A stretch of 51,354 bases of DNA from positions 1-51,354 of IMG/VR virus record IMGVR_UViG_3300048114_000266; one strand, written 5' to 3'. The position numbers were made by a program, and so were the translations under genes. The notes beneath the pieces were generated by a model. The model did no database searches and had not been told where the DNA came from. It saw only the letters and a program-made list of their open reading frames with translations. The stretch's first letter is position 1, and each line of letters opens with the position of its first letter. Origin of the DNA: a virus. Shown piece after piece: positions 2,629 to 39,488 of this stretch.

Positions 2629-2743
2629 TCTTATCCCCGAATATCCGCCGTCGCGCCTTAACGTTTAGTTACGGGTCGGGCCGGTGTATATGCGACAAGT
2701 TTATATGCCTACCCGTCCAAGTGGGTAGTAGGTGCGAACCCCT

Positions 2744-3339: not shown

Positions 3340-3789
3340 TTACGTTTCGACTGAACGCGACCGCGCTTCGAAGCCGATGGTGACTTCGTAGACGTAGGCC
3401 CCGAAGGTACTATCGTCTAACGGCGTGACGTCGGCGAAGACCATGCGGTCGAAGTCGCCCGGCGTGTCCGGTCGTGACCTGTTGGCTTCGACAATCCGCC
3501 GAAATTCGCTGAATAGTTCGTCGCGACGGTCTTCGTCGGACGCCTTAATTTCCGCGAATATCGTCGCGTCAAGGTCTTGGGACGATTGGAATAGGTCGGC
3601 GTATTCGATACCGAACGGGGAGGTTTCGGACACTTCGACGTAGTCGTATATGCTTAGGTCGCGCCCCTTCCCCAAGTCGTCGGACTTGTCGATTGTCGGT
3701 TCGTCGTTCGACGTGTTCGCCGCGACCCATTCGGCTTGCAGTAGGTCGCGGAATTCCTGAACGATTTTTGTAAGATTTGGTTGCGTCAT
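3340..3789 (-). CDS. Hypothetical head-tail region protein
   Basis: ORF track, ATG at 3789, 149 aa, acidic. Confidence 0.55.
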   Translation of the reverse strand: MTQPNLTKIVQEFRDLLQAEWVAANTSNDEPTIDKSDDLGKGRDLSIYDYVEVSETSPFGIEYADLFQSSQDLDATIFAEIKASDEDRRDELFSEFRRIVEANRSRPDTPGDFDRMVFADVTPLDDSTFGAYVYEVTIGFEARSRSVET

Positions 3790-8505: not shown

Positions 8506-8544
8506 ACTGTAAGCCGACCCTACGACGACTTAAAGACCGACCTA

Positions 8545-8558
8545 CCTAATATATAACC
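8545..8558 (-). promoter_or_regulatory. AT-rich TATA-like element of the capsid operon promoter
   Basis: Plus-strand taatatataa at 8547-8556 in the 275-bp portal/scaffold intergenic region, about 40-50 nt upstream of ATG 8505. Confidence 0.4.
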
Positions 8559-8780
8559 CGTCAAATCGGCGGCGTCGTGACTATACAGCGTTACTATACA
8601 GACGTCGAAAAGCCGCCGCGCCCCGTGACGAACGCGGCGGACACGACGACGACGCGGTGTCGGGCGTGAAAGGTTTGGTGCGAACCCTATGACTTGCCCG
8701 CGACCGACCGGACGGGTCGCCCCGTCACTTCGACGTAGCGTCGGCCCCATTAAAAGCATGTCGGGCGGAACGTCGACGCC

Positions 8781-14174: not shown

Positions 14175-14230
14175 AGGTTCGCACCGTTAGCCCCTTCGTA
14201 ACCCCGGTATAAAATAGTGTCGCCGTTGGT
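14175..14230 (-). promoter_or_regulatory. Promoter-leader cassette (variant)
   Basis: Gene-strand order cgacact-ATTTTATA ... ggtgcgaacc-t-ATG. Confidence 0.5.
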
Positions 14231-15642: not shown

Positions 15643-16020
15643 CTACCGGCCCCCGTAATTCGGGAAGCGTTTTTCCATTAGTTCGGCAAAGCGTTCGCGG
15701 GCATAGGCCCCCCAATCCCGACCGTCGTGTTCGACGACGTCGGTGTCGGAACCGATTAGGTCGAAGTCGTGGTCGTGCGAATCCGACTTTCGCCAACCAC
15801 CTTCGACGTCGCGGTCGTTCCGTGCGTCGCGGTAAGGGTATTGGTAATACCATTCTTCGCGGTAAACCCGAAGCGACCGCGTGTCGGCGTCGCGAACGAA
15901 CTTTTCGACCACGACGTCACTTTCAGTCTTCGCCAGCATTACGACGACGCCGTCGCGGGGTCGGTATTCGTATAGGCGGGCGCAGGTATTTTCTCCCGGC
16001 GTTGCGGTTTCTTGTGGCAT
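15643..16020 (-). CDS. Hypothetical protein
   Basis: ORF track, 125 aa, ATG at 16020 directly preceded by the promoter-leader cassette. Confidence 0.55.
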   Translation of the reverse strand: MPQETATPGENTCARLYEYRPRDGVVVMLAKTESDVVVEKFVRDADTRSLRVYREEWYYQYPYRDARNDRDVEGGWRKSDSHDHDFDLIGSDTDVVEHDGRDWGAYARERFAELMEKRFPNYGGR

Positions 16021-16075
16021 GGGTTCGCACCTACTACCCCCTAACTGCCATACGTACTTAAGCCTGTCGGCGTTA
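16021..16075 (-). promoter_or_regulatory. Promoter-leader cassette
   Basis: Gene-strand gccgacagg-CTTAAGTA-cgtatggcagttagggggtagtaggtgcgaaccc-ATG. Confidence 0.6.
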
Positions 16076-16293
16076 CACTACACTTCCCGAACCCACATGA
16101 CGCGACATTCGTAACCTTCCGACACTTTGGACATAATCCAATCTACTTGTGAATTGCTAAGGGCGTCGCGGCCTTTCGGTTTAATGCCGACAGGTTTATT
16201 ACCGTGGGGTGCGTATCTACACCCGGACACCGACGCGGTGGCCCGGCGACCCGTCCGACCGGCGTGGTCGTCGACGACAGCAAACCCGTGACC

Positions 16294-16768: not shown

Positions 16769-18244
16769 CTATGCCTTGTCGACGTGCGACGACGTCGACG
16801 ACCCCGAAGACGACGACCGGCGGCTTTCCGTATAGATAGCGTACCGAAGCGCGTCGGCCGCGTGGTCGTCGACGTCGCTACCGCCGACGTCTTCTTCGGT
16901 GTAGCCAAGCAATTCCTTCCGCGTTTCTTCGCACCGTTCAGCGACCAACAGCCCCGGCCGACCGTCGGCGTCTTCCCGAAGTCGATACCGGACTTCGTCA
17001 ATCCCGGCGTCGACTGACTTGTCGGCCTTGCCCGCTTTCCACCCGCGCGACCGCATTTTCTGAATGTCGCCGGGTTCGTGTTCGGAATGGATTCGGCCGC
17101 TTGGCTTGTCTGAAAGCCAATATTCGTCGTGTCGCGGCCCGCCGATTATGTCTTCGACGTGCGTCCCCGAACGGTAAAATTCGTCTACGACGATATATTG
17201 CCCGGCGTGGGTCTTCGCTATTTCAAGCATGACGCGGGGGTCGTCCCACCCGGCGTCGTAGCCATACATGCGCCACGACCCGCCGATTGCCGTATCGTAT
17301 TCGGGGATTGTCCCGTCGGATTCGACGTCGACGACGTGACTATGCCGGCGGAAGTCCGAATACACACGGCCTTCGTCGGCTTCGAATGACCCGTGTAGTG
17401 CTTGGTTTTCCCTCCCCGTTCCGCCGTGAATCCGCCGGATTCGCGCCCGGTCGTCTTCCGTTAGGAATGGGTTATTATCGGTCGACGCGGTGATTAACTT
17501 CGTCCGAATGTTCAGCGTATTTCCGTCGGCGGGGTCGACACCTTGTTCTAAAATGTCCCATGCGTCGTTAAACCCGTTCCCGGTCGTCGTGATTAGGATA
17601 CAGCGCGGGCCGGCGGGCTTGTAGTCTAAGCGTTCGCCTATCGTCTTCCGAACGCCGTTCAGGTCGTCGTAATATGCGGCTTCGTCAAGCCACGCGAATG
17701 AGAATTTGCCACCGTCGTAGCGGTTCGGCTTGTCGGCCGACGCCAAGATAATGACCGACCCGTTTATCAGCGTGATTACGCCGTCTTGTTTGCTGAACGA
17801 CCGGACGATTGGGGAGTTTTCCGGGTCGCCGTCGCCCAAGAATGGGTCTAAATTCTCCCCCGGAAGTTCTTCGAAAAGGACGGGGTACGTCGTCTTTTTC
17901 GATTCGGCGTAGGTCTTCCCCATAGCCAAGACGCGCGCCGGGGCGAAGTCGTTCGCCAAAGCGACTTCGATACAGGTTCGCGCCCCGGTGACTGACTTCC
18001 CCGAACGGTAGCCGGCGACTATGCCGATAATGTCGAAGTCCCCGGAATAGACGGCCGTCCGCGCTTCCCGCTGGGGTTTCCAAAACGCCCACGTAATATC
18101 TATGTCAGTCCCGTCGACGTCGACGACCGCGCCTTCGCGCCGTAGAAGTTCGACGTCTTCGTCGGATAGGTCGGCCGCGCCCGGCGCGAATATCGGCGTG
18201 CCGTCGGGCGCTGTTAGCCGCGTCGGTTCGGAAGTCGTCGACAT
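16769..18244 (-). CDS. terL: Terminase large subunit
   Basis: ORF track, 491 aa; Walker A GYRSGKS, Walker B-like WLDEAAYY, C-terminal acidic nuclease-like region ending DHAADALRYA. Confidence 0.8.
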   Translation of the reverse strand: MSTTSEPTRLTAPDGTPIFAPGAADLSDEDVELLRREGAVVDVDGTDIDITWAFWKPQREARTAVYSGDFDIIGIVAGYRSGKSVTGARTCIEVALANDFAPARVLAMGKTYAESKKTTYPVLFEELPGENLDPFLGDGDPENSPIVRSFSKQDGVITLINGSVIILASADKPNRYDGGKFSFAWLDEAAYYDDLNGVRKTIGERLDYKPAGPRCILITTTGNGFNDAWDILEQGVDPADGNTLNIRTKLITASTDNNPFLTEDDRARIRRIHGGTGRENQALHGSFEADEGRVYSDFRRHSHVVDVESDGTIPEYDTAIGGSWRMYGYDAGWDDPRVMLEIAKTHAGQYIVVDEFYRSGTHVEDIIGGPRHDEYWLSDKPSGRIHSEHEPGDIQKMRSRGWKAGKADKSVDAGIDEVRYRLREDADGRPGLLVAERCEETRKELLGYTEEDVGGSDVDDHAADALRYAIYTESRRSSSSGSSTSSHVDKA

Positions 18245-18803: not shown

Positions 18804-19607
18804 TTAGTCGTCGATACGGCCGTCGTGGGTCACGTCGACGTCGCGGTCGTCGACCCCGACCGCCTTCGACACGACGCTTTCGATACTGTCGTGAACGCTG
18901 TCGGCGTCGTCGTCGGCGACGCCGTAGACGTCGACCGTGTAGGCGTGGCCGGCCGGGAAGTCGATACGGGCACACTTCCCGACTTCTTCTTCGCGCGACC
19001 CCTTCGTGACGACACCGCGTTCGAACACGGCGCGGACTTCGACCGTGCGGTCGCGGCGGGCGTGGTATCCCTGAACGCGGTCGCCTTCCCAATCGACGCT
19101 GACGTCGTCTATGCGCATGGTTTTGAGGTTCCCCGACCGCTTCGAACGGTAGTGAACCGTGACCGAAACGCCGTCTTGAACCGCTCCCGTGACCGGCGCG
19201 GATTCGGGGAAGTCGACGCGGTAAACGGCGTCGACGTCGCCCACGCAACGGTACGAATCGCCGCGCGACCATAGGCGGCCGTCGTCGGTGTAGGCGTAGG
19301 CGTCACCGTCGTCGTGGAACGTGTAGGCGCTGACGCTGTCGAAGTCGACGTCGGACGGGAAGCGGTCGGCGTCGAACGAAGACGCCCGCGTGGGCTGAAT
19401 CGCACGCACGACCTTCGTGTTCCCGTGCGACGTCGTATATTCGAATTCGATAGCCGTCTTTCCCGCGTCGTCGCGCCGGGAACCGTCGACGAACGACAGC
19501 CCCGTAAACCGGGAATACTGCAAGTCGTCGGCGTCGACTTCGGTTCGGCGTTCGCGGTATTCGGCGGCAATCTTGTCGTCGGTCGGCTTGGTTGCGTTTT
19601 CAGGCAT
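18804..19607 (-). CDS. Hypothetical protein
   Basis: ORF track 18804..19628; ATG at 19607 sits directly on the promoter-leader cassette; begins MPENATKPTDD. Confidence 0.55.
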   Translation of the reverse strand: MPENATKPTDDKIAAEYRERRTEVDADDLQYSRFTGLSFVDGSRRDDAGKTAIEFEYTTSHGNTKVVRAIQPTRASSFDADRFPSDVDFDSVSAYTFHDDGDAYAYTDDGRLWSRGDSYRCVGDVDAVYRVDFPESAPVTGAVQDGVSVTVHYRSKRSGNLKTMRIDDVSVDWEGDRVQGYHARRDRTVEVRAVFERGVVTKGSREEEVGKCARIDFPAGHAYTVDVYGVADDDADSVHDSIESVVSKAVGVDDRDVDVTHDGRIDD

Positions 19608-19664
19608 GGGTTCGCACCTACTACCCACTAACGGGGCTACGGTAATAAGTGTGTCGCTGTTGGC
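19608..19664 (-). promoter_or_regulatory. Promoter-leader cassette
   Basis: Gene-strand cagcgacacaCTTATTAccgtagccccgttagtgggtagtaggtgcgaaccc-ATG. Confidence 0.6.
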
Positions 19665-19907
19665 CTACCCGTCTTCAAGTTCGCGTATCTTCCGATAACA
19701 CGCGCCGACGACGTCGCTTCGCGGTTCGCGGTCTTCTTCGTCGGCCAATTCGACTTCGGCGTCGTAGTAGGCTTGTGCCCGGTCGGGGTCGGCAATCCCA
19801 CGAATCAGCGCGGCGATAGTCATGTCATTCTTTTCAGATAGCATTTTCTTCGGTTCGCTATCGTAGCCCGGCCCGTCGGCGGCCGCGCGCTGATTCGCTG
19901 ACGGCAT
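19665..19907 (-). CDS. Small hypothetical protein
   Basis: ORF track, 80 aa; start overlaps the upstream stop by 1 nt. Confidence 0.45.
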   Translation of the reverse strand: MPSANQRAAADGPGYDSEPKKMLSEKNDMTIAALIRGIADPDRAQAYYDAEVELADEEDREPRSDVVGACYRKIRELEDG

Positions 19908-20131: not shown

Positions 20132-21978
20132 TCGTCACCTCCTACGCCCTTGTCCCAATCGACGGGCGTCCCGCAACGTGGGCACCGTGGCCCGGCGTGC
20201 CCGCCGCATTCGTCACACGCGGCTTCGTCATGTTCGTCGCACGAACACGACGGGACGAAGAAGTCTTCGGGTAGCGACTTCCGTTCGCACCCGTGGCACA
20301 CGTAGGCCGTGACCGGCTTCGCGGCCGGCGTCGACGCGCCGACGTCTACCCGGACGTTCCAAATCCCGAAGCCCGTGTCGACTTCGTGCCATTCGCCGGC
20401 CTTGCCGTCACGTTGGGCGGCTAACGTCCCGTCGCCTTTGTCTTGTACCGCGATATGCACGTCGGCCGCTCCTTGCCGTCGCCGACTGTATGGGACGAAT
20501 TGGTCGAAGACGTCATTCCGTGGGAAGTTCAAGTCGCTTTCCGTGCCGAATTCCTTGCGGAAGTCTTCGATTTGTTCGGTCGTCGCCGGTTCGAAGCCCC
20601 ACGGTTCCCGCGCTTTCGCCCGGTCGATAATCGCGTCTAATTGGTCGCTTGTCCGGTCGTCGTCGGGGCCTTCCCACGCGATTCGGTAGGGTTCCGGCGT
20701 GTGTTGGGACATGATAGCCTGAACTATACGAAGGGCGTGTCGCGGGCCTTCGATTGGGTCGTGCGCCCATTCTTCCCCGTCGACGTCAGTCGCCGCATAT
20801 GTCCCTTCGGTCGATTCTTCGAAGTGACCTATACAGTCAGCGCAAAACGGTAGGTCAAGCGTGAACCCGCTTGGCAATTGATAGCGGCGAACCGTGTCGG
20901 TGTCGTTCGTACATTCGAACGTGACACACTTCGACCGAACCGGGACGTCGTTATTTTCGGCGATTGCGTCGGCGATTTGTTCGGCGACTTCGCGGGGGTC
21001 GCTGTCGGTCAAGAAGACGTCTATATTGCCTTCGACCCATTCTTCTATCGGGCCGACAGGCGGCCGGTCGGGACTTTCCAAATTGTCGACGGTGTCGTCT
21101 AAGGCGACACGAATGTCAGACGCGACCCGTTCGGCGACGTCTTCGGGCGTGTGTTCGTCGGTGATACCTTCCGACGCAAGGTCGTCGTACCGGGCGGCAA
21201 GGTCTTCGAACGCTTCGACCATGTCGACCGGGGCCGACGGGCCAATTTCTTGGTCGCGCCAACCGTCGGGGAAGTCCGACAGTCGGACGCCCAAGTCTTG
21301 AAGGCGGTCGTCAGCCCCGTCGCGGTCGGGGTCGGGAAGCGCGTGGTCGTAGTCGTCGACGACGTCGCGGAAGATACGAAGCGCGGACACCGACCGAAGT
21401 TCGTCGTGTAGCCGCGTGTCGACGTCGCCCAAGAAGGCGGCGACCGTGTCTTCGGACACGCCGACGACGTCGTCGGGGACGTCACGCACCGGGACTTCGA
21501 CGGGTTCGACGCGCGTTTCGACCGGACGAAGGTGAATCGTTAGTTCGTCAGTCGCTTGGGCGATTGTCGACCGCACGGCTTCGTCGGCACTAAGGCCGGG
21601 TTCGACGTCGACGTCGCCGTATTTCGCCCCGCCGTATGCCTTCGTCACGCGGACGTCGCCTTTTTCGATAAGCCGATTCACGAACGTCGGCCCCGTCGAC
21701 GGTTCGCCCATGCCGCCGTTCGCGAACGTTACGCGAACGTAATAGCGGGGTTCGTGGTCTTTCTCCCCCGGCGCGTGCGACCCCATTAGGTTCACCGACG
21801 CGATTCGGTCGTCGTCGGCGGCGGCCGCTTTGATAGCCGCGTGTAGTGCCGCATTCGTGGCGTGGTCGTCGCGCACACGCCGCCGGAAGTAGTCGTCGGC
21901 CGATACGGGGCGGAACGTGTCGCGGCCGTCAGCGCGTCGCGTGGCGGGCGCGTCGGCGACGTCGTCTTCGTCGGTCAT
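20128..21978 (-). CDS. Large hypothetical protein with C-terminal Cys-rich zinc-binding region
   Basis: ORF track, 616 aa; C-terminus CHGCERK ... CSCDEHDEAACDECGGHAGPRCPRCG. Confidence 0.6.
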   Translation of the reverse strand: MTDEDDVADAPATRRADGRDTFRPVSADDYFRRRVRDDHATNAALHAAIKAAAADDDRIASVNLMGSHAPGEKDHEPRYYVRVTFANGGMGEPSTGPTFVNRLIEKGDVRVTKAYGGAKYGDVDVEPGLSADEAVRSTIAQATDELTIHLRPVETRVEPVEVPVRDVPDDVVGVSEDTVAAFLGDVDTRLHDELRSVSALRIFRDVVDDYDHALPDPDRDGADDRLQDLGVRLSDFPDGWRDQEIGPSAPVDMVEAFEDLAARYDDLASEGITDEHTPEDVAERVASDIRVALDDTVDNLESPDRPPVGPIEEWVEGNIDVFLTDSDPREVAEQIADAIAENNDVPVRSKCVTFECTNDTDTVRRYQLPSGFTLDLPFCADCIGHFEESTEGTYAATDVDGEEWAHDPIEGPRHALRIVQAIMSQHTPEPYRIAWEGPDDDRTSDQLDAIIDRAKAREPWGFEPATTEQIEDFRKEFGTESDLNFPRNDVFDQFVPYSRRRQGAADVHIAVQDKGDGTLAAQRDGKAGEWHEVDTGFGIWNVRVDVGASTPAAKPVTAYVCHGCERKSLPEDFFVPSCSCDEHDEAACDECGGHAGPRCPRCGTPVDWDKGVGGDE

Positions 21979-22358
21979 TCGTCGACCCCCGATTCGGTGG
22001 CGCGGTTCGGGTCCGTTTCGTCGGGCGTGTAGTAGAACACGCGGACTTCGCTGGGGCCGTCGAACGTCAGTCGCCGGACAAGCGCCCCGTCGGGAACGTG
22101 GGGAAGTTCATCGACGACGCGGTCGGCGACGTCCCCAGCAATTTCGGGGTCGATTGCCCCGACCGCTTCTTCGGCGTCGTCGGGCGCGACTGAATCGCGG
22201 AAGACGTTCGCGAACATGTCTTCGACCACGCGTTCGATTTGGTCGTCGGGGAGGTTCACGCCGATTCGGGCGTTCGGCCCCGCGTCACGGTACTTCGATG
22301 GATTGCGGAACGCGCCGATAGCCGCGCGGACACGTTCGCGTAGGGTTCGCGTCACCAT
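21975..22358 (-). CDS. Hypothetical protein
   Basis: ORF track, 127 aa; upstream caccgacacgc-TTATTCTA about 30 nt before the ATG. Confidence 0.5.
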   Translation of the reverse strand: MVTRTLRERVRAAIGAFRNPSKYRDAGPNARIGVNLPDDQIERVVEDMFANVFRDSVAPDDAEEAVGAIDPEIAGDVADRVVDELPHVPDGALVRRLTFDGPSEVRVFYYTPDETDPNRATESGVDE

Positions 22359-22415
22359 ACGGTACGCGACTACCGACGGGCGTAGAATAAGCGTGTCGGT
22401 GTTACACCGCGCGGG

Positions 22416-22706: not shown

Positions 22707-22765
22707 AAGGGTTCGCACCTACTACCCACTAACGGCCATACGTACTTAAACCTGTCGCCGGTACA
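22707..22765 (-). promoter_or_regulatory. Promoter-leader cassette
   Basis: Gene-strand ggcgacagg-TTTAAGTA-cgtatggccgttagtgggtagtaggtgcgaaccctt-ATG. Confidence 0.6.
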
Positions 22766-23002
22766 CTACCCGTCGGCTTCGTCGGCGGCTTCGACAAGGG
22801 TGCGCGCTTCGGCAATCTTGTCGTCGACGCGCCCTTTGTGACTTCGAACGGTCCCGACAGCGACGCCAAGCGCGTTCGCGACGTGGGTTTCGGTCGCCCC
22901 AATTTCATACATGGCCACGAAGACGAACGCTTGCCGTTGCGATAGCGTCGTGTTTGATTCTATTACGTCGACGCGGTCGGTCAAGTCGTCGACGTCAGTC
23001 AT
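22766..23002 (-). CDS. Small HTH regulator (sigma-70 region-4-like helix-turn-helix)
   Basis: Internal ATG at 23002 of ORF track 22766..23272, overlapping the upstream stop as ATGA; contains LSQRQAFVFVAMYEIGATETHVANALGVAVGTVRSHKGR. Confidence 0.5.
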   Translation of the reverse strand: MTDVDDLTDRVDVIESNTTLSQRQAFVFVAMYEIGATETHVANALGVAVGTVRSHKGRVDDKIAEARTLVEAADEADG

Positions 23003-23535
23003 TCGTCTTCGTCGCTGTCGTCGTCTTCGCCCCCGCCCCACGTTGCGCCGTCGAAGCCGGACGTGTCTTCGTCGGGTAGGTCGGTCCCGTCGGCCCGACG
23101 CTGAAGTATCTCCCGAACGCGGCCGGTGACTTCCGTAACGTCGACGTCGTCGGGAACGCCGTCGCGGGCGAATTCGTCGACCCATTCGTCGACCGTCGTG
23201 TCGTCTTCGTCGTCTAACGCCGGGCATTCGAAGCCGCGACACATGCCCGGCCGGTCGTCGTAGACGCCACACTTCCCGTCGTCAGTCAAGTGTTCGCATT
23301 CGAACGAAATATTCCGGCCGCCGTCCGGGGCTTCGGTCACGAACCACCGCATATCAGGGACCGACCCGTCGGCCAACAGTAGTTGGTCAAAGCCGTCGTG
23401 ATTCAGGAAAAACGAATCGTAGCGTTGGCCTTCGCTAAGTCCGGCGAAGGATATTTGGCCTAACCTAAAACTACAACAGCGCCCACCGCAATCGGCGCAC
23501 GGGTTCACCGCGTCTTCGGTCGACATACCCGCCAC
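22999..23535 (-). CDS. Cys-cluster protein (YkgJ/CxxCxxCC-like putative metal-binding)
   Basis: ORF track, 178 aa; N-terminal CADCGGRCCSF, further Cys in ECEHLTDDGKCGVYDDRPGMCRGFEC, acidic tail. Confidence 0.55.
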   Translation of the reverse strand: MAGMSTEDAVNPCADCGGRCCSFRLGQISFAGLSEGQRYDSFFLNHDGFDQLLLADGSVPDMRWFVTEAPDGGRNISFECEHLTDDGKCGVYDDRPGMCRGFECPALDDEDDTTVDEWVDEFARDGVPDDVDVTEVTGRVREILQRRADGTDLPDEDTSGFDGATWGGGEDDDSDEDE

Positions 23536-24039: not shown

Positions 24040-25233
24040 TCAGTCGAAGATTTGGTGCGTGTTCACGGCCAAGACCTTGCCGTCGTCGCGGTCGGGAAGG
24101 TCGACCCACGCGGGGGCGTAGTCTTCGGCGGTCGAACGGTCGCACACGCCGACGGCCTTTTCTTCGAAGTGAACGCCGTCGCCGGGGACGTCACCGAAGA
24201 CGACGTCGCCGTCGGCTTTCTCCCCGTCGGCCGCCCGGACGTCGATATTCGTGAAGTCGGTCGTGATTGCGACAGCGACGCACACGGGCACGTCGTCGGC
24301 GGCTTCCCACGCGGCGGCGATTGCGTAGGGGTCGAAGGACACGTCGGTCGGCTTGAACACGCCCGTCGGGTGGCGGCGGGCGAAGTCGACTTCGTCGCTG
24401 TCGTCGTCAGCGTCTTCGAACTTGGCAAGCATGTCGCGACCGACGCGGTCGACCGTGTCCGAATCGTCAGCGAAGTCGAACATGTGGCCGTGAATTTCGA
24501 CCGATTCGACGGTGCCGGTGTCGGGGTCGACGACGAAAGCACCGTGGCGACCGTTCGCGACCGTGCGAAGGTCGGCCCGCTCCCGAAGGACGTCAAGCGC
24601 GTCGCGAACGTCGTCGACGACGTCGTAATGTTCGGCGACGATACGGTCGGGTTCGAACCATTCCGCAAGGCCGGTCGCGAAGTCGAAGTCGGCCCCGTCG
24701 TCGCGCGTCGACACGAACCGGATAACGTGACGGTCGTCGTCGTTCATGGGTTCGTTCACCGCAAGGGCGAACGGGTCCGTGACGTCGGCGGCGGCGTCGT
24801 CAAGGTTGCGGCGGGCGCGTTCGTGGGCCGGCTTGTCAGCGTCGCCGTCGTCGGCGTCGGCGACTTCGACGACCGTGTCTTCCGGGTCGCCCTTGCGCGT
24901 GTGTTGGGTGACGTAGTCGCGACGCTTGTTCGACTTCGCCGCGCCGACCGTGATTGCGTCGGGGGATTTGTCGGACGCCGCGACGAAGAAGTATAGCGTT
25001 TGGTCGGTGTCGTCGTCGCTGACGTAGTGGCCACGAAGGGCGACTTCGGCCGAAGCGTTCCCTTGGCCGTGCCCGTTCACGTAATCGGTCGACACGACGT
25101 CGCCTTCGACGACGCGGTCGGTCTTGGTCGTGTATCCGCCCGTCAGCGACACGCGAAGGGTGTCGCCTTCTTCGACGCTGTCGGCAAGTTCCGCGAACGT
25201 TACGAAGTCGTCGGCTTCGGTGGTTTCGGTCAT
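24040..25233 (-). CDS. Hypothetical acidic protein
   Basis: ATG at 25233 within ORF track 24040..25245; begins MTETTEADDF; preceded by the cassette. Confidence 0.6.
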   Translation of the reverse strand: MTETTEADDFVTFAELADSVEEGDTLRVSLTGGYTTKTDRVVEGDVVSTDYVNGHGQGNASAEVALRGHYVSDDDTDQTLYFFVAASDKSPDAITVGAAKSNKRRDYVTQHTRKGDPEDTVVEVADADDGDADKPAHERARRNLDDAAADVTDPFALAVNEPMNDDDRHVIRFVSTRDDGADFDFATGLAEWFEPDRIVAEHYDVVDDVRDALDVLRERADLRTVANGRHGAFVVDPDTGTVESVEIHGHMFDFADDSDTVDRVGRDMLAKFEDADDDSDEVDFARRHPTGVFKPTDVSFDPYAIAAAWEAADDVPVCVAVAITTDFTNIDVRAADGEKADGDVVFGDVPGDGVHFEEKAVGVCDRSTAEDYAPAWVDLPDRDDGKVLAVNTHQIFD

Positions 25234-25296
25234 GGTGGTTCGCACCTACTACCCACTAACGGCCATACGTACTTAAACCTGTCGCCGGTACACTAC
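25234..25296 (-). promoter_or_regulatory. Promoter-leader cassette
   Basis: Plus-strand sequence 25234-25296 is near-identical to 22707-22768. Confidence 0.6.
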
Positions 25297-25408
25297 CCAC
25301 GCCCCAATTCCGGCCCGATTTGTGCGCGAACGTGCCCACCCGAATCGAAAACGCTGGGGCGACGTTCCGCGCTTGTTCACGACTATGCACCAATCGCGGC
25401 GTAGGAGG

Positions 25409-27309: not shown

Positions 27310-27684
27310 TTAGGCGTCGACGTCGGGGTCGATAGCGTCAGCGACAGCGTCGCGCACCTTGTCGACAGTCGCTTCGTTCCACGACGCGGGGAAGACGACG
27401 GTCGCGTCGGCGACGTCATGCACGGGGAGCGATTCGGCGGCGTCGCGGTCGCCGGCCGATTGGCGCGGGCCGACGCCGATAGCCGACCGGAAGCCGTCGA
27501 CGTCCGCGACGTTTCGAAGTTCGTGTCGGGCGTAGTGTAGCGCGTCGGGTTCGACTGACAGCCCGACAGCGACGAAGGCGGCGTCGGTCTTGTCGACCGC
27601 GTCTTGTAGTTCGCGACCGAAGGCTTCCCATACGGTCGGGTCGTCGGCGTTACGTAGGTCGTCGGCGAAGTCGTGGGCGTTCAT
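27310..27684 (-). CDS. Hypothetical acidic protein
   Basis: ATG at 27684 within ORF track 27310..27696; preceded by the cassette. Confidence 0.55.
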   Translation of the reverse strand: MNAHDFADDLRNADDPTVWEAFGRELQDAVDKTDAAFVAVGLSVEPDALHYARHELRNVADVDGFRSAIGVGPRQSAGDRDAAESLPVHDVADATVVFPASWNEATVDKVRDAVADAIDPDVDA

Positions 27685-27743
27685 GGTGGGTCGCACCTAC
27701 TACCCACTAACGGGGCCACGGTAATAAAGGTGTCGGCGTTACA
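27685..27743 (-). promoter_or_regulatory. Promoter-leader cassette
   Basis: Gene-strand acgccgacacc-TTTATTA-ccgtggccccgttagtgggtagtaggtgcgacccacc-ATG. Confidence 0.6.
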
Positions 27744-28013
27744 CTACACGTCGGCGTCGGGTACGCGGAAGCGTTCGGTTCCGTCGTCGGTTTCGAATTC
27801 CACGACGCCGGCGGGAATGTCGAATTCCCCGGTAGCGTGTGCGGAATACGGTAGTTCCGTCTGATTCGATTCGGCGGGCACGGTGAACCCGAACCCACGG
27901 GTGCGATAGTCGACGGTGACGTCTTCGAAGCGTTCGGGTAAGACGACCTTCCCGCGTTCGCCACGTTCGACCGTCGGTAATTCGTCGCTGTCGTCGGCGG
28001 TAGCGTCGGACAT
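27744..28013 (-). CDS. Hypothetical protein
   Basis: Internal ATG at 28013 of ORF track 27744..28040. Confidence 0.5.
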   Translation of the reverse strand: MSDATADDSDELPTVERGERGKVVLPERFEDVTVDYRTRGFGFTVPAESNQTELPYSAHATGEFDIPAGVVEFETDDGTERFRVPDADV

Positions 28014-30398: not shown

Positions 30399-30733
30399 GT
30401 GTCTTCAGTAGCGTCGAATTCGTTCGTTTCGTCACGGGTGACGTCCAAGTCGCTGACGTCGCCGAACCGTTCGACCATGACCACGGCGGATTTGCGGACG
30501 TGCCGAACTTCGTCGTAGATTCGAATGGCTTCGGCGTCGCCCGCGTCTTGGTCGCCCAAGCCGTGCCGTGGCGGGGACACCGACGCGCGGTAGCCCGCAA
30601 GGTCGTCTTTGTCGTCAGTCGTCACGACGACGTCGACATGGGCGAATGCGCGCCCTTCGTCAGTAACGTCGGGGTGGTCGAAGAATAGCCGGAACGCCCG
30701 GCCCGTATCGAAGATTTGGTCGAACGTGTTCAT
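30395..30733 (-). CDS. Hypothetical protein
   Basis: ORF track, 112 aa; ATGA overlap with the upstream gene. Confidence 0.5.
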   Translation of the reverse strand: MNTFDQIFDTGRAFRLFFDHPDVTDEGRAFAHVDVVVTTDDKDDLAGYRASVSPPRHGLGDQDAGDAEAIRIYDEVRHVRKSAVVMVERFGDVSDLDVTRDETNEFDATEDT

Positions 30734-31101
30734 GGGTGGGGGTCGTAGGCGTCTTGTGCGAATTCAGTCACGTCGTCGGGGTGAACGTCGATACCGACGA
30801 ACGTCGTCAGATACGACGCAAGGGCTTCGGTCGCCTTGTCGGTCGCGACGTAGGTATTCGTCCGCTTGTCGCGTTCGCCCTTGTAGATAAATCCATTCCG
30901 AACCAAGTCGTCAAGGTTCGGGTAAAGGCGGCCGTGATTGACTTCTTCGCCACGGATTACCTCTAAGTCGCGCTTAATCGCTAAGCCGTGCGGTCGGTCG
31001 TCGGGGGACGCACCGGGAGAGCCACCAAGCCGCATGATTGCGATAGCGGCCTGTTGTTGAAAGGCGGTAAGGTGCGCCCAATCGCTCACTTTCGGGTTCA
31101 T
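30730..31101 (-). CDS. Winged-helix transcription regulator (PadR/MarR-like)
   Basis: ORF track, 123 aa; GRLYPNLDDLVRNGFIYKGERDKRTNTYVATDKATEAL reads as recognition helix plus wing; a palindromic site lies just upstream. Confidence 0.55.
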   Translation of the reverse strand: MNPKVSDWAHLTAFQQQAAIAIMRLGGSPGASPDDRPHGLAIKRDLEVIRGEEVNHGRLYPNLDDLVRNGFIYKGERDKRTNTYVATDKATEALASYLTTFVGIDVHPDDVTEFAQDAYDPHP

Positions 31102-32198: not shown

Positions 32199-33821
32199 CT
32201 ATCTGTTGGTTTCGAACCGTGACGCCGGCCGTTGCGACCCGGTGACGTGGTCGATGACCTTCGTCGACACGGTCGGCATTTTGCCGTCGCGTTCGTACCG
32301 CTCCCGTGACGCCACGACGTCGACCTTGTCGGTCGGCGCGGGGCCGACGTCGACCGCTACGACGTGCGTCCCGCCGTGGCTACGGTAGTGGTCGACCCCG
32401 ACGACTTCGCCTTCGAAGACCGTGCCGTTATCGTCGGCCCATACGGTCGCGCTGTCGCCGACTTCGGCCGCGTAGACGTTCGCCGCTATGCCTTCCGAAT
32501 CCATCGTCGTGGCGTCGAAGACCGTCTTCGCGCCGTCGGCGGTCGGGTGGGCCATGCGCGGATTGTTCGGCGCGCGTAGCGTCAGCGTGTCGGTCGCGTC
32601 GGGTTCCGTCGTGATTGGTTCGTACCGGGAGCAATCCGGCGCGTGGTCGTATGGGGCCGGCGCGTACCGGCCGCAAAACGCACACTTGTCGACGTCGCCG
32701 CCGGCCGCGTCGGGGCCGCCGTCGAAGCGGTCGTCGCGATAGTCGACGCCGCCGTCGGTCGCTGTCGGGCGGTCGATACGGTCGTGTGCGAAGACGTCGT
32801 CGGGGTCGACGGTCGTGCCGTCGATATGGTAGCGCGCCCATTCGGAAGACCGTGCGCCGTCGTCGTCTTCGTGGTCGTCGAACCACCCTTGCGTAACAAG
32901 AATGACGTGTTCGTCGGTGTCTTCGAAGTAGTGAATGAATACTTCGGCGGGGACGGTGTAATAGGGCTGAACCGCCGCGTTCCCTCCCGAATAGGCGCGG
33001 AAGTCGATACGGAACGGTTCGCCCGGTTCGGGCGATTCGCCGCCGTCGGTCGCGGCTTCGGGGCTATCAGTTTCACTTTCACCGCGCGGGGTGTCGTGGT
33101 CTTCGTCGCTGTCGACGAACGCTTCGAAGACGTCGGCCGCGCTGTCGCGAAGGTCGTCGCGCACCATGTGGTCGCGGTCGTCTTCGTCGGCGTGGTAGAC
33201 GTCGGCGCGAAGGACACGGCCAAGCCGGGACATTTGACCCTTCGGCCCGCGCGTCGATATGACCGGCGACCCGTGGGCGGGCACGCCGAAGCGGTGAATG
33301 CCGACGGGTTCGCCGTCCGACGTTTCGTCGCCCGTGTCGAACGTGACTTCGAATAACTCCCCGTTCGCGTAGTTGTATTTGACCGACGTGACGGTGCCCC
33401 GAATCGTCTTCCGATTGCCCTTCGCGCGGGTCGACATGTGTTCGACTTCGATAGTGTCGCCGCGTGCGACGTCGCCGACGTCGAACGCAAGTTCGCCGTT
33501 ATCCGCGAAGTCGCCTTCGACGTCCGGTTCGACGTCGCGAACGACGCGCATGTCGACGCCCGTCGTGAACCGGCCGCCCGAATCCGTCGACTTGACGAAG
33601 CCGCCGTCGGTAATCAGGAACGAATACGACCGGGCGTTCGCGCGGTCTAACGACGCTTCGACGACGGTGCCGTCGTAGTCGCCGTAATCGACGCCGACCT
33701 TGTCGACCGTTAGATTCGACTTCGGGAGGAAAGACGCGCCGGACACGCTGACTTCGTCGCCGACTTCGATTTGTTCGACAGACGTCACGGCTTCGGTCGT
33801 GGTTTCGGTGGGTTCGGTCAT
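32199..33821 (-). CDS. Large hypothetical protein
   Basis: ORF track, 540 aa; begins MTEPTETTTE on the cassette. Confidence 0.6.
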   Translation of the reverse strand: MTEPTETTTEAVTSVEQIEVGDEVSVSGASFLPKSNLTVDKVGVDYGDYDGTVVEASLDRANARSYSFLITDGGFVKSTDSGGRFTTGVDMRVVRDVEPDVEGDFADNGELAFDVGDVARGDTIEVEHMSTRAKGNRKTIRGTVTSVKYNYANGELFEVTFDTGDETSDGEPVGIHRFGVPAHGSPVISTRGPKGQMSRLGRVLRADVYHADEDDRDHMVRDDLRDSAADVFEAFVDSDEDHDTPRGESETDSPEAATDGGESPEPGEPFRIDFRAYSGGNAAVQPYYTVPAEVFIHYFEDTDEHVILVTQGWFDDHEDDDGARSSEWARYHIDGTTVDPDDVFAHDRIDRPTATDGGVDYRDDRFDGGPDAAGGDVDKCAFCGRYAPAPYDHAPDCSRYEPITTEPDATDTLTLRAPNNPRMAHPTADGAKTVFDATTMDSEGIAANVYAAEVGDSATVWADDNGTVFEGEVVGVDHYRSHGGTHVVAVDVGPAPTDKVDVVASRERYERDGKMPTVSTKVIDHVTGSQRPASRFETNR

Positions 33822-33879
33822 AGGGGTTCGACCTACTACCCACTTGCACCCGGTGGTACATAAAGGTGTCGCCGTTGGT
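33822..33879 (-). promoter_or_regulatory. Promoter-leader cassette (variant)
   Basis: Gene-strand cggcgacacc-TTTATGTA-ccaccgggtgcaagtgggtagtaggtcgaacccct-ATG. Confidence 0.55.
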
Positions 33880-34356
33880 CTAAACGGGGTAAGCGGGTAG
33901 CGTCGGAAGCCGTGGGTGCGTGTAGTAGTCGCCCATGACGCCGTGTTTGTATAGCGTGGGCGACGTCGCGCCCCAATCGGACAAGAATGATTGGTCGGTT
34001 TCCCAATCGTAGCCGTCCGCCGACTTCGCTATTACGTCGACGTCTTGCAGGGACACCGTGAATTCGGTCGTGCCGTGGGGCTGGGGCGTTAGCCTGATTT
34101 GCTCCTTGTCGGTGTATTCGTGGGGAACGCGGGACATGCGCCGGACGTTTTCGGTGCCGCCGACCGTCGGGACGCTGTCGACCAAGTCGTCGATTACGCG
34201 GTCGGGCGTGTCGAAGAAGTCGCGTTCGTGGCGCACCCGAATGTAGTGGTTCCCGTCGGGGAGGTACGGGAGCGTGGCGGCGACTATCAGCGCGTCGCGT
34301 TCGCGAAGTCCCAAGTCACGCAAGTCGTCGACCGTCGTAGGCTTGTGCTTACTCAT
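33880..34356 (-). CDS. Hypothetical protein
   Basis: Internal ATG at 34356 of ORF track 33880..34470; begins MSKHKPTT. Confidence 0.5.
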   Translation of the reverse strand: MSKHKPTTVDDLRDLGLRERDALIVAATLPYLPDGNHYIRVRHERDFFDTPDRVIDDLVDSVPTVGGTENVRRMSRVPHEYTDKEQIRLTPQPHGTTEFTVSLQDVDVIAKSADGYDWETDQSFLSDWGATSPTLYKHGVMGDYYTHPRLPTLPAYPV

Positions 34357-34574
34357 TTGTACGGGCCGAATTCTTCGTCGCCGTGTTCGTCTTCGAAGAC
34401 GCCGATAGCGTATAGGGCCAAAGCCCCGACCCCAGCGACCGATAGCCCGCCGACCGCTACGCCGGCCCACATGCCGGCCACGCGCATGGCTAAGCCCGAC
34501 GCCCCAGCGACGAATGCCACGACACCCGCGACAGCGATAGCGGCCACGGGGACGGCTATGTGCTTGGTATTCAT
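34353..34574 (-). CDS. Small membrane protein
   Basis: ORF track, 73 aa, two hydrophobic helices. Confidence 0.45.
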   Translation of the reverse strand: MNTKHIAVPVAAIAVAGVVAFVAGASGLAMRVAGMWAGVAVGGLSVAGVGALALYAIGVFEDEHGDEEFGPYK

Positions 34575-35377
34575 GTGTTCGTGTCTAACAAGGGCGCTTG
34601 CATGAATTTAGTGTTCACCCGGCCGTCGTCGCGTTCGGTAAAGACGTGGTACGGGTTCCCGTGGCCGGTGACGAACCGCACGTAGTCTTCGCTGATTGCG
34701 TCGACAATATTCGGCATGTATTTGTTCGACATGCGGGCTTCGGTGAACGATTCGGGCGGGTCTTGAAGCCATTCGAAGCCGTCGTCGTCGTGTAGTTTCA
34801 CGCGGGCGCTGTCGTTATCGCCCTTGCCTTCAAGGACGAACGTACCGACGTCGTCGTCAGACGCGACGAAGTTCCCTTGCCCGCTCCCCGCGCCGGATAG
34901 TTCCGCGACGTCGGTCCCACGGTCCCACCGTTCGACGGGAATGGTCACGAAGACGTTATACCCGTGTTCGTCTTTGACCGGCGGGACGTCGACCGGCGAC
35001 CCCTTGACGCTGTCGGGGTCGACACCCGACATTTCGTATTCGACGCCGTCGGCCTTGAAGTCTAAACTGTAATTATCCCAATTGTAATCTAACTGAACGA
35101 CGTCGGCGTTTTTCGCGATACCAAGCAATTCGTCTAACTTGCCGGTGTCGACGCCAATCGCGAAGGTGTCTTCGACTTCGTAGTGTTCGAAGTCGGTCGC
35201 GTCGACGGCTTGCCGCGACAGCGCCACGTTCGCCGCGTCTTTCTTGCGAACGCGAAGGCGGTCGGGTTCGAATTCGAACACGGCTTCTAAGTCGGGCGAC
35301 ACGGCGTCGACGCCTTCGGTAATCGTTTCCCAAATGCTTGCGTCGGCAATCGTTTCGACAGTAGGTTCGTTTGTCAT
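34571..35377 (-). CDS. pcna: PCNA-like sliding clamp
   Basis: ORF track, 268 aa. The segment RLRVRKKDAANVALSRQAVDATDFEHYEVE...FAIGVDTGKLDELLGIAKNADVVQL follows the pattern I recall for haloarchaeal PCNA N-terminal domains; alignment done by eye only. Confidence 0.55.
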   Translation of the reverse strand: MTNEPTVETIADASIWETITEGVDAVSPDLEAVFEFEPDRLRVRKKDAANVALSRQAVDATDFEHYEVEDTFAIGVDTGKLDELLGIAKNADVVQLDYNWDNYSLDFKADGVEYEMSGVDPDSVKGSPVDVPPVKDEHGYNVFVTIPVERWDRGTDVAELSGAGSGQGNFVASDDDVGTFVLEGKGDNDSARVKLHDDDGFEWLQDPPESFTEARMSNKYMPNIVDAISEDYVRFVTGHGNPYHVFTERDDGRVNTKFMQAPLLDTNT

Positions 35378-35438: not shown

Positions 35439-35521
35439 TGCGACGGGCCGGATTCGAACCGGCGAACCCCTACGGGACACGGTCTTAAGCCGTGCGCGTT
35501 TGGCCACTTTGCTACCGTCGC
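35439..35521 (-). tRNA. tRNA-Leu, anticodon UAA
   Basis: Hand fold of GCGACGGTAGCAAAGTGGCCAAACGCGCACGGCTTAAGACCGTGTCCCGTAGGGGTTCGCCGGTTCGAATCCGGCCCGTCGCA: 7-bp acceptor stem, anticodon stem CACGG/CCGTG with loop CTTAAGA, long variable arm, T-arm GCCGG-TTCGAAT-CCGGC. The D-stem is weak. Confidence 0.7.
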
Positions 35522-35599: not shown

Positions 35600-35716
35600 T
35601 AGTCGCGGGTGGATTCGAACCACCGTCGTAGGCTTACTTTCGGGCACGCCCCCTTCGACCTTCGTTCAGCGTGCCCGTCCAAAGGCCCACATGATTGGCC
35701 ACTACACCACGCGACT
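35600..35716 (-). tRNA. tRNA-Gln, anticodon UUG, with a 44-nt intron
   Basis: Exon 1 AGTCGCGTGGTGTAGTGGCCAATCATGTGGGCCTTTGG and exon 2 AGCCTACGACGGTGGTTCGAATCCACCCGCGACTA give a perfect acceptor stem, anticodon stem TGGGC/GCCTA and T-arm GGTGG-TTCGAAT-CCACC. The insert sits at the canonical 37/38 position. Confidence 0.7.
35635..35678 (-). other. tRNA intron
   Basis: Contains a 9-bp inverted repeat CGGGCACGC ... GCGTGCCCG, compatible with a splicing helix. Confidence 0.6.
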
Positions 35717-35765: not shown

Positions 35766-36224
35766 CTACCCACTATCAGACACGGGGGCGACCCCGTCGT
35801 CGTCTAAGTCCGTGGCCGTGCGTCTGACGAATTCCCGAACCGCTTCGACGTCCGGGCGGCCCGGCGTGTCTTGTAACGTCGCGACCGTCGCTTGGTCGAC
35901 CGCCGCGTCGAATTCGGGAGCGTTCGCCGCTTCTTCGAAGGCGACACGGTGGTCGTCGACCTTTTCGATAGCGACGTCGGCCCATTCGGGTAGGTCTTCG
36001 TCGTCGATTGCGTCAAGCGTGGCCGCGTAGACGCGGGGTTCGGGCACGTTCACTTCGGCCGCAAGCGTCGGCACGTCGACTTCGGGGACGCTGACGTCGA
36101 ATTTTACCTTCGTCCGAAGTTCGTTCGTCCCCAATTCGGACGCCTTTGGCTTCGTCTTGCGGATTTTCAGGTCGCCCGTTTTCCAATCGACGACTACCCA
36201 CCCGGTAATCTCCTTGTCAGTCAT
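35766..36224 (-). CDS. Hypothetical protein
   Basis: ORF track, 152 aa; ATGA overlap with the upstream gene. Confidence 0.5.
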   Translation of the reverse strand: MTDKEITGWVVVDWKTGDLKIRKTKPKASELGTNELRTKVKFDVSVPEVDVPTLAAEVNVPEPRVYAATLDAIDDEDLPEWADVAIEKVDDHRVAFEEAANAPEFDAAVDQATVATLQDTPGRPDVEAVREFVRRTATDLDDDGVAPVSDSG

Positions 36225-37642: not shown

Positions 37643-37700
37643 GGTTCGCACCTTGCGACCTATCGTTTCGTCGTAGGGGGTAAAAGCGTGTCGGTAATAT
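37643..37700 (-). promoter_or_regulatory. Promoter-leader cassette (variant)
   Basis: ggtgcgaacc box directly abuts ATG 37642; accgacacgc-TTTTAcc and TATATTA lie further upstream. Confidence 0.45.
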
Positions 37701-37840
37701 ACTGTTTGGTTTGATTGTCCTACGCTTCGACAGTCGGGGAGCGTGACGAAGCGCGTGTGCGCCCCGTGACGGGGTTCGGTGGTCGGTGGGTAGTGTAGGG
37801 CGTAGAAGAAGGCGGGCGTGCGTGCGGCGTGCGTGGCCGC

Positions 37841-39358: not shown

Positions 39359-39420
39359 AGTGGTTCGCACCTACTACCCACTAACAGGGCTACGGTAATA
39401 AAGGTGTCGGCGTTGCACCA
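39359..39420 (-). promoter_or_regulatory. Promoter-leader cassette
   Basis: Gene-strand cgccgacacc-TTTATTA-ccgtagccctgttagtgggtagtaggtgcgaaccact-ATG. Confidence 0.6.
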
Positions 39421-39441
39421 CGGGTTAGGTATTGCCTGATT

Positions 39442-39458
39442 GGTATATTAGCGACATA
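39442..39458 (+). promoter_or_regulatory. BRE/TATA-like promoter of the TFB-like gene
   Basis: cgacatac-TTTTATG about 35 nt upstream of ATG 39489. Confidence 0.45.
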
Positions 39459-39488
39459 CTTTTATGCCGGTCGGCGGTACGTGTCGGT

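Follow-up and report, generated by a model that had tools for sequence, protein, structure and literature searches.

Why should one viral genome carry the same arrangement of promoter, leader and start codon in front of a whole series of unrelated genes? The question is raised by the window analysed here, the complete 51,354-nt stretch of IMG/VR record IMGVR_UViG_3300048114_000266, which comes from a tailed virus of haloarchaea (see below). A preliminary description, made from the letters alone, had singled out a cassette of about 55 bp at positions 22707-22765 and at nine or more other gene starts, and had held that a leader so conserved is more than a promoter, perhaps a shared RNA element, a regulator-binding site or a recombination module for swapping gene starts. 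Our analysis indicates, with a probability that we put at about 0.75, that the cassette is a virus-specific promoter, transcribed by the host polymerase, which places most of the leftward transcription units and a lone rightward gene under one control. The two ends of the window overlap exactly over 127 nt (1-127 = 51228-51354), so that the window is the whole genome, a closed circular assembly of 51 kb, and the claim that the cassette recurs across the genome holds literally. Coordinates are those of the window throughout.

A repeated block of about 70 bp

A 20-mer within the cassette, GTGGGTAGTAGGTGCGAACC, was found at seven sites when up to three mismatches were allowed, as against none in 100 dinucleotide shuffles; five of the sites are exact and two have one mismatch, and they lie at 2721 on the plus strand and at 16022, 19609, 22710, 25237, 27688 and 39362 on the minus strand. 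One further copy, the eighth, lies at 33824 on the same strand and carries a 1-nt deletion. The shorter motifs GGTGCGAMCC and CGACANNYTTW occur 12 and 18 times in the window, for 0.44 and 1.7 expected occurrences, respectively. With a profile built from the eight copies (nhmmer), these scored 60-74 bits and everything else 16 bits or less. The repeated block is thus real, with eight strong copies and no shuffle matching its 20-mer, and the coordinates first given for the copies are correct. Its extent and number, as initially described, need amending: when aligned, the eight copies share about 70 bp, well past the TATA element, and of the ten copies claimed eight are full, while those at 14175-14230 and 37643-37700 have only the part formed by the B recognition element (BRE) and TATA, together with GGTGCGAACC. 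The common block reads, in gene orientation, a (G)GGTAGTGTA box, one variable base, CGACA, two variable bases, TTTAWKTA, 13 nt, GTGGGTAGTAGGTGCGAACC, 1-3 nt and ATG. All the copies, the eight strong and the two partial, lie immediately 5' of an ATG and in the orientation of the gene (copies are cited below either by the first position of the block or by the position of the 20-mer, as above):

22707..22777, minus strand: strong cassette, at the site first singled out (74.2 bits); upstream box GGGTAGTGTA at 22771-22762, in which TAG (22768-22766) terminates the upstream open reading frame (ORF); CGACA at 22757-22753; TATA element TTTAAGTA at 22750-22743; TTA at 22732-22730; GTGGGTAGTA at 22729-22720; GGTGCGAACC at 22719-22710; CTT spacer; ATG at 22706-22704
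25234..25304, minus strand: strong cassette (71.2 bits); precedes the gene at 24040-25233 (397 aa, MTETTEAD...)
39359..39429, minus strand: strong cassette of the first leftward unit, divergent from the TFB-like gene (71.7 bits); precedes a 505-aa CxxC-rich gene at 37841-39358
27685..27755, minus strand: strong cassette with box variant GGTGCGACCC (71.1 bits); precedes the gene at 27310-27684; the ORF upstream ends on the TAG of its upstream box (27746-27744)
19608..19676, minus strand: strong cassette with a 1-nt spacer before the ATG (67.5 bits); heads the unit with 18804-19607 and the large terminase gene, 16769-18244
16021..16089, minus strand: strong cassette with variant GGGGGTAGTAGG and a 1-nt spacer (67.1 bits); precedes the gene at 15643-16020
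33822..33891, minus strand: strong cassette whose box has lost 1 nt (GGTCGAACC; 59.9 bits); precedes a 540-aa gene at 32199-33821; its upstream TAG (33882-33880) ends the preceding ORF
2672..2743, plus strand: the sole strong cassette on this strand (60.8 bits); precedes a lone 188-aa gene at 2744-3310
14175..14229, minus strand: older-type promoter (nhmmer E 0.019) made up of CGACA, TTTTATA, a spacer, GGTGCGAACC, T and ATG, without GTGGGTAGTA; heads a unit running into the portal gene
37643..37702, minus strand: older-type promoter (nhmmer E 0.47) of the form CGACAcgcTTTTACC ... GGTCGCAAGGTGCGAACC-ATG, without GTGGGTAGTA; precedes the gene at 36221-37642

The copies at 25237 and 22710 do not differ at all from -52 to +10 relative to the start of the box, and the 3' half of the 39359 copy is nearly identical to that of the 25237 copy through codon 8. 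In four copies the TAG of the upstream box doubles as the stop codon of the preceding ORF, which means that the repeat takes up the whole intergenic space. At the other end, conservation extends into ATGACCGAA(A/C)(A/C)C in five copies, the common first codons being ATGACCGAAACC..., in agreement with the preliminary description, which had noted that the similarity ran into the first codons. No family was found among the ten downstream proteins in an all-against-all BLASTP comparison, and none of them matched Pfam or PHROGs; since they are unrelated, the MTET... codons that they have in common come with the cassette and not from paralogy. No relatives of the 540-aa product were found in IMG/VR. 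The 505-aa product has three CxxC...CxxC motifs resembling Zn ribbons, and the lone gene at 2744-3310, which opposes the direction of the head-tail module and lies between the tail-tube gene and 3340-3789, has a moron-like layout.

The first genes after strong cassettes differ from other genes in composition. Their median GC content at third codon positions (GC3) is 0.81, as against 0.73 for the other genes (Mann-Whitney p 0.009), with values of 0.79-0.83 in six of the eight (e.g., 24040-25233, 37841-39358, 32199-33821 and 2744-3310), and their products are more acidic (21-26% Asp plus Glu vs 18%). The raised GC3 and acidity of the cassette-proximal genes suggest high expression or a distinct origin.

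Relatives of the virus were collected through the terminase and through the protein resembling transcription factor B (TFB) that is encoded beside the first cassette; they are metagenomic loci, designated here by L numbers. The promoter at 14175 has counterparts in L002 (6121), L001 (9663) and L024 (8590), and a promoter of the 37643 type precedes the corresponding gene in L014 (8582) and L015 (9882). Both are true relatives of the cassette, because the same leader-type promoters stand at the corresponding genes of related viruses. Two other candidates were rejected. The GGTGCGAACC at 8677..8686 on the plus strand, part of what had been described as a decayed copy at 8673-8691, is not preceded by a TATA and falls within an ORF of the minus strand (8520-8759) whose relatives conserve it as coding sequence. 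Exact GTGGGTAGTAGGTGCGAACC gave no matches in IMG/VR or in GTDB genomes; the sole exact match in the metagenome collection (L020, 724-743) is in a 1.4-kb contig of lower GC content, lacks CGACA and TATA at the cassette spacing and is probably due to chance. These searches with the 20-mer thus pointed to no host or provirus.

Promoter geometry, related viruses and mosaic copies

Counted from the first T of the TATA element, the TTA occupies positions 19-21 and GTAGTAGG positions 26-33. Haloarchaeal promoters have a consensus of CGAAA for the BRE, TTWT for the TATA element, WW near -10/-11 and a pyrimidine-purine start (PMC4983044). In the cassette, CGACA agrees with the BRE at four of five positions and lies directly 5' of the TATA element, which begins TTTA; the TTA falls at -12 to -10, T/A steps are found within GTAGTAGG, and the first T of the TATA element is 30-31 nt before the predicted start. 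The spacing of TATA, BRE and start site has been mapped experimentally in the intergenic repeats of the halovirus HF2 (PMC8707807). The BRE/TATA geometry proposed for the block is thus borne out, and promoter function is well supported by this geometry and by analogy with HF2. From it we infer promoter activity and a start site, predicted to be the A just before GGTGCGAACC, that is, A22720 or A22723 in the 22707 copy. Such a start would leave a leader of 14-17 nt whose first bases would be GGTGCGA(A/C)CC, hereafter the start box; GGTGCGAACC would accordingly be transcribed, as the preliminary description had left to be decided, and conservation in the block exceeds what a core promoter needs.

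The GTG within the box was considered as the true start codon and rejected: it is in frame in five of the eight copies, out of frame in those at 19609 (with an early stop) and 16022, and absent from the one at 33824. Leaderless GUG starts are weak in Haloferax (PMC4983044).

Other promoters of the genome have no box. These (CGACAcgcTTTT...) lie at 1612, 8763, 15420, 27299 and 31144 on the minus strand and at 16188 and 42495 on the plus strand, and their targets include a PadR gene (31144), the unit with the capsid protease and capsid genes (8763) and a tail unit (1612). To these are added two individual promoters:

39452..39488, plus strand: plain promoter (GCGACAtacTTTTATGC) of the TFB-like gene, with the ATG 29 nt after the first T of TATA, so that a leaderless transcript is predicted
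22358..22398, minus strand: promoter without the 20-mer (CGACAcgcTTATTCTA ... ATGGTGacGCGAACC) that starts the gene at 21975-22358 and resembles the leaderless type of the relatives (see below) with a 2-nt insertion

The genome appears, then, to have at least two promoter classes, box-bearing and box-less, as does HF2.

In the related viruses the promoters follow the pattern ...TAGTGTAACaCCGACAc-N2-TTTATTA-N21-(g)tATGGTGCGA(A/C)NC, and gTATGGTGCGA is the best conserved block in 16 such promoters taken from the relatives, ahead of TATA. In most relatives the ATG within tATGGTGCGA lies 29-30 nt after the first T of TATA, the proteins begin MVR, and the gene starts assigned by the source pipeline fall at that ATG (L012, 9621; L014, 1576 and 4640; L015, 6371; L017, 9878; L018, 1523; L019, 9899). 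Most box promoters of the relatives are thus predicted to give leaderless mRNAs. The codons in the box are always GTG (once GTT) and CGA, which indicates that the constraint acts on the nucleotides. A minority of the relatives' promoters, including the counterparts of 37643 and 14175, are of the leader type, with the ATG 10-14 nt past the box. The start of the box lies 38-40 nt past the C of CGACA in nearly all copies from the window and the relatives (42-43 nt in one orthologous set), whereas the ATG is found at -2, +10, +11, +12, +13 or +14 relative to it. With its spacing fixed to TATA and variable to the ATG, the element must belong with the initiation of transcription or with the mRNA's 5' end, and not with the start codon.

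The first cassette has kept its place beside the TFB-like gene in L011, L021, L024, L025 and others, which allows the history of the window's version to be followed. The sequence in L024 (caagtgggGGTATggtgcgaacc) and that in the window (caagtgggTAGTAggtgcgaacc) are of equal length and differ by the replacement of five bases, GGTAT in L024 and TAGTA in the window, between caagtggg and ggtgcgaacc in both; with it the ATG is lost and two TAGs are gained. The derived form is also present in L011 and L021, in which the neighbouring protein is 77-78% identical. In the first cassette of L011 (neighbouring protein, 78%), the spacer next to the TATA element differs and GTTAGTGGGTAGTAGGTGCGAACCAC is identical to that of the window, a pattern that speaks for purifying selection between -16 and +12.

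The copies within the window have, moreover, recombined with one another. Upstream halves of one type (AGGTTTAAGTACGTATGGC) are found at 25237, 22710 and 16022, and of another (ACCTTTATTACCGTRGCCC) at 39362, 27688 and 19609; downstream halves with ACCAC[CT]ATGACCGAAACCACCGAAGCCGACG are found at 39362 and 25237, and those with C-ATGCC at 19609 and 16022. All four combinations of halves are present, which requires exchange between copies within the invariant core. Several relatives have homogenised cassettes of their own, with BRE words that differ between genomes and the same ATGGTGCGA core: L029 has four near-identical copies (10229, 14224, 16554 and 17904, plus strand) with CCGGTACA in place of CCGACAC (BRE word CGGTACA), L028 has two near-identical copies of about 70 nt (9886 and 813, minus strand), and L019 has CGATAC throughout (892, 1955, 5231 and 9899, minus strand). 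Contigs of close relatives assembled from short reads (Logan) stop in or at the cassette beside the TFB-like gene (L011, 1-62; L021, 1-60; L022, 1-40), a break to be expected at a multi-copy repeat that exceeds the word length of the assembler.

Candidate regulators and competing explanations

In the explanation that we prefer, each cassette would fill the interval between the stop codon that ends one gene and the ATG that opens the next, which it drives. Its core elements would recruit TBP, TFB and the host RNA polymerase, which would transcribe the unit, with the TTA as the A/T step and a pyrimidine-purine initiator inside GTAGTAGG. The ancestral type would have been the leaderless tATGGTGCGA; replacement of GGTAT by TAGTA would have removed the ATG and turned the box into a leader, translation moving in the window lineage to an ATG 1-3 nt past the box. 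Recombination or gene conversion would then have carried one variant of the cassette to eight promoter positions, and these, heading most leftward transcription units and one lone rightward gene, would have come under common control. What is conserved beyond the core, namely the upstream box and positions -16 to +12, would most likely be read by a virus-encoded regulator, and both selection and recombination would keep the cassettes uniform. That the cassette is a regulator-binding site, as had been suggested, is plausible on this evidence. The candidates for a factor acting on it would be the TFB-like protein and, second, a PadR protein:

39489-40538, plus strand: TFB/TFIIB-core homologue of 349 aa (PF00382, E 2.4e-24), divergent from the first cassette
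30730-31101, minus strand: PadR-family winged-helix regulator of 123 aa, behind the box-less promoter at 31144 and kept at the same place in L012, L014, L015 and L024

The TFB-like protein has two cyclin repeats and aligns to Pyrococcus TFBc (1AIS_B residues 54-191), including the BRE-reading helix; its structural model (mean predicted local distance difference test score, pLDDT, 83.8) superimposes on 1AIS_B and 1D3U_B with template modelling (TM) scores of 0.73-0.74. The Zn ribbon (PF08271), present in nearly all cellular TFB matches, is absent from the window protein and from 25 homologues (P0001-P0026), and about 100 N-terminal residues are missing in the alignment, so that there is no B-reader or B-linker; only three scattered Cys residues are found. 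The product of 39489-40538 is therefore best described as a TFB-core homologue and not as a full TFB. The viral TFB-like proteins have an extra C-terminal region of about 145 aa with a further helix-turn-helix-like repeat. The 25 homologues (P0002-P0026) are all metagenomic, from contigs of up to about 50 kb, and no relative was found among GenBank phages. In the literature consulted, the only other viruses credited with TFB homologues are certain rudiviruses and Asgard viruses (PMC9501531; bioRxiv 10.1101/2021.07.29.453957). The last 40 or so residues of the window protein (40404-40523, plus strand; YNxLKxIAA..VDVGQQPxxxxLIxxLV) recur near the C-terminus of an unrelated 473-aa cassette-driven protein (36284-36421, minus strand; BLASTP E 4e-5); the motif is present in all the viral TFB-like homologues and may be a shared interaction module.

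Several points weigh against a dedicated promoter under a viral regulator. A canonical BRE and TATA would suffice for the host machinery, and the HF2 repeats are active in Haloferax without a viral factor (PMC8707807), so that the extra conservation may in part reflect recent copying. Lacking polymerase-recruiting domains, the TFB-like protein is not a simple alternative initiation factor. Cassettes stand before non-structural and terminase/portal units alike, and hence do not define a simple temporal class. No palindromes or inverted repeats of the kind bound by dimeric repressors were found in or around the three cassettes examined, and the start site and activity of the promoter are predicted from spacing alone.

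A more specific proposal is that the viral TFB-core homologue, alone or with a partner protein, gates the promoter class, by occupying TBP-DNA at CGACA/TATA or by reading the invariant A(T)GGTGCGA box, and so switches the units on or off jointly; it would be the archaeal equivalent of the sigma factors encoded by phages or of promoter sets of the T7 type. The TFB-like gene lies divergently beside the first cassette in the window and in those relatives, fetched through its product, whose contigs reach that region; it is present in all the fetched clade loci that cover the divergent region and in none of the fetched controls; TATA and GGTGCGA at the right spacing occur one to six times per clade locus, nine times in the window and not once in about 113 kb of controls without the gene (HHTV-2 and BJ1-like loci). 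The co-occurrence suggests a link, but one confounded by shared ancestry. The conserved BRE-reading helix, in a fold confirmed by the model, and the genome-wide shifts of the BRE-like word in relatives to CGATAC (L019) or CGGTACA (L029) would also fit. However, no clear co-variation between the recognition helix and the BRE variant is seen among the few genomes, the start box lies about 30 bp from TATA, past the reach of a TBP-bound TFB core, and CGACA differs from the host consensus CGAAA at a single position, so that the host TFB may well suffice. Without a Zn ribbon, B-reader and B-linker, moreover, the protein alone should block initiation rather than support it. Gating by the TFB-core homologue is thus unlikely, and equally tentative is its fuller form, in which the clade would have a promoter class of its own, marked by a BRE word particular to each genome and by the invariant A(T)GGTGCGA box in the bases transcribed first, and controlled by the viral TFB-core paralogue, which would either block these promoters selectively or work with a Zn-ribbon protein of the virus.

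The remaining explanations take the leader, or the repeat as such, to be what is selected. In the eight strong copies AGGTG precedes the ATG by 7-9 nt and would be complementary to the 3' end of haloarchaeal 16S rRNA (GGAUCACCUCCU), so that AGGUG at the 5' end of a short leader of uniform kind might pair with the CACCU near that end, serve mainly as a translation signal and lend equally strong initiation to every cassette gene; the unstructured leader and the raised GC3 of the cassette-proximal genes, which fits high expression, are compatible with this. But in most relatives the box forms codons 2-4, after the ATG, where a Shine-Dalgarno function is impossible and which makes a purely translational role of AGGUG unlikely; the distance from the box to TATA is fixed, whereas that to the ATG runs from -2 to +14; the predicted start would leave AGGUG at the extreme 5' end of the mRNA; and 72% of Haloferax mRNAs are leaderless, leaders of at least 6 nt being rare (PMC4983044). 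We therefore hold this role to be improbable. Still less probable is a portable recombination module for exchanging genes or gene starts within and between genomes, with the promoter role secondary. The mosaic copies, which need exchange in the invariant 26-nt core, the identity into the first eight codons of two unrelated genes, the homogenised versions that differ between genomes and the ends of the relatives' short-read contigs all speak for recombination, and as an account of how the copies evolved it stands; nothing, however, marks gene-start swapping as the function of the copies, and repeats are expected to recombine whatever they do. All copies keep the exact promoter geometry, the gene orientation and the position before the ATG, the core is under purifying selection between diverged genomes while the adjoining spacer changes, terminal inverted repeats of mobile elements (of the miniature inverted-repeat transposable element or insertion sequence kind) are absent in and around the three cassettes, and Pfam and PHROGs scans of about forty window proteins identified no recombinase for the block, the Hjc-type resolvase being the only candidate of this sort. 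That the leader acts as a structured or otherwise specific regulatory RNA (riboswitch-like, a small-RNA target or a processing signal) is very improbable. The element is predicted to be transcribed, and its nucleotides are conserved independently of the reading frame, but the predicted leader is only 14-17 nt long, and the eight 62-nt 5' ends folded (leader plus the first 45 nt of coding sequence) were no more stable than shuffles (z from -1.24 to +0.61) and had no fold in common. At the gathering threshold Rfam matched only two tRNAs at 35.4-35.7 kb and nothing at the cassettes, and the only possible hairpin, of 3 bp in GGUGCGAACC, is broken without compensating changes in the relatives' variants GGTGCGAAGC, GGTGCGACCC and GGTGCGACAC. 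The shared RNA structure first envisaged thus finds no support in folding.

The viral genome and known repeated promoters

The assignment to a tailed virus of haloarchaea follows from the homologies of the head-tail genes, which include genes for a prohead protease and a portal protein, and from the very acidic nature of the encoded proteins; the GC content is about 61%. Judged on the homology of its tail-tube and capsid proteins, the virus is siphovirus-like. A megablast search with 12 kb of the window found no close DNA relative among GenBank phages. The genes identified outside the regulatory regions are the following:

1618-2628, minus strand: tail-tube protein
5531-6736, minus strand: major capsid protein, 50% identical to its HHTV-2 and HCTV-2 counterparts
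16769-18244, minus strand: large terminase, with 41-44% identity to its counterparts in Humcor1, BJ1, HSTV-1 and other haloviruses
22999-23535, minus strand: protein with a CxxCxxCC Zn/Fe-chelating domain
34571-35377, minus strand: PCNA homologue
35439-35521, minus strand: tRNA-Leu(UAA), the first of two tRNA genes
35600-35716, minus strand: second tRNA gene, of 117 nt, from an Rfam match only; it may hold an intron
43229-43729, plus strand: Hjc-type Holliday-junction resolvase

A CGACA-type promoter lies at 35756, near the two tRNA genes. The junction of the ends falls in tandem 126-nt repeats (42 aa, hydrophobic; 50850-51342 and 1-241) of a gene that spans the ends and may be the tape-measure region.

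The closest parallel to the cassette is found in HF2 and other haloferacalesviruses, whose class I intergenic repeats are of about 58 bp, highly similar and confined to intergenic regions (Russ, Pfeiffer, Dyall-Smith 2021, PMC8707807). In both systems an upstream conserved motif is followed by BRE and TATA and then by a conserved motif around the transcription start (measured in HF2, predicted here), several copies head transcription units (early and middle ones in HF2), and sequence and position are kept in related viruses; the window thus has the multiple similar intergenic copies, the BRE/TATA spacing and the conservation in relatives that mark repeats of the HF2 kind. The authors of that study propose that virus-encoded factors bind the repeats (PMC8707807). 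By eye, and against the fragments of the HF2 motifs that are quoted there, the cassette has no likeness to the alpha, beta and gamma motifs (TCTTTAAGTC; CGTCTNNTAGAG), and only the generic TTTAAGT of one TATA subtype is common to both. The two appear to be the same kind of element from different sequence families. They differ in other respects: the virus of the window belongs to another lineage, siphovirus-like and with a capsid protein that shares 50% identity with those of HHTV-2 and HCTV-2; the block extends as far as the start codon, which in the relatives is part of it; the part that is invariant in the clade is found 3' of the predicted start; a TFB-like gene accompanies the cassette; and activity and start sites were measured for the HF2 repeats, whereas for the cassette they are predicted.

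Early genes of SIRV2 and other archaeal viruses, unrelated to one another, are likewise preceded by a conserved sequence around a near-identical BRE and TATA (Bhoobalan-Chitty et al. 2024, PMC11065993). Each virus has flanks of its own, and the presumed repressor of these promoters is Aca8, a winged-helix protein (PMC11065993). The window resembles them in encoding a winged-helix protein, of the PadR type. In SIRV2, however, the viruses are crenarchaeal and the genes driven are small, single anti-defence candidates, whereas the cassettes of the window head long genes and multi-gene units, including that of the terminase, and no anti-defence function is indicated for them.

Bacteriophages offer two further comparisons. 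Promoters of T7 RNA polymerase are conserved from -17 to +6, and phage sigma factors read sets of phage promoters; the cassette is similar in its long repeated consensus, which includes the first transcribed bases (as predicted), and in the presence of a virus-encoded component of the initiation machinery. Unlike T7, the virus of the window has no RNA polymerase of its own, and its TFB homologue is without polymerase-recruiting domains. The start-associated sequences of cluster K mycobacteriophages, of about 13 bp, are, like the box, short, conserved, asymmetric sequences right before the starts of many unrelated genes in one genome, but these bacterial elements go with the start codon and the ribosome-binding site, not with a promoter, whereas the spacing of the box is fixed to TATA and not to the ATG.

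Repeated promoters are thus already known in haloviruses. What is new here is a clade-wide invariant box at the predicted first transcribed bases, a switch from leaderless to leadered genes and the association with a truncated viral TFB. The cassette provides a second, unrelated example of repeated promoters in haloviruses, of which only the HF2 group had been studied. The box is kept at the predicted start of the transcript whether it is coding (MVR...) or leader, and the predicted switch from mRNAs without a leader to mRNAs with one can be traced to a change of 5 nt. For genome annotation the cassette is a practical marker of where operons begin; in short-read data it interrupts the assembly of these viruses. 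It also defines a set of candidate target promoters for the truncated viral TFB, in archaea for which reporter genetics is available. If the class were indeed controlled by that protein, it would provide the first pairing, for any archaeal virus, of a viral homologue of a general transcription factor with its target promoters.

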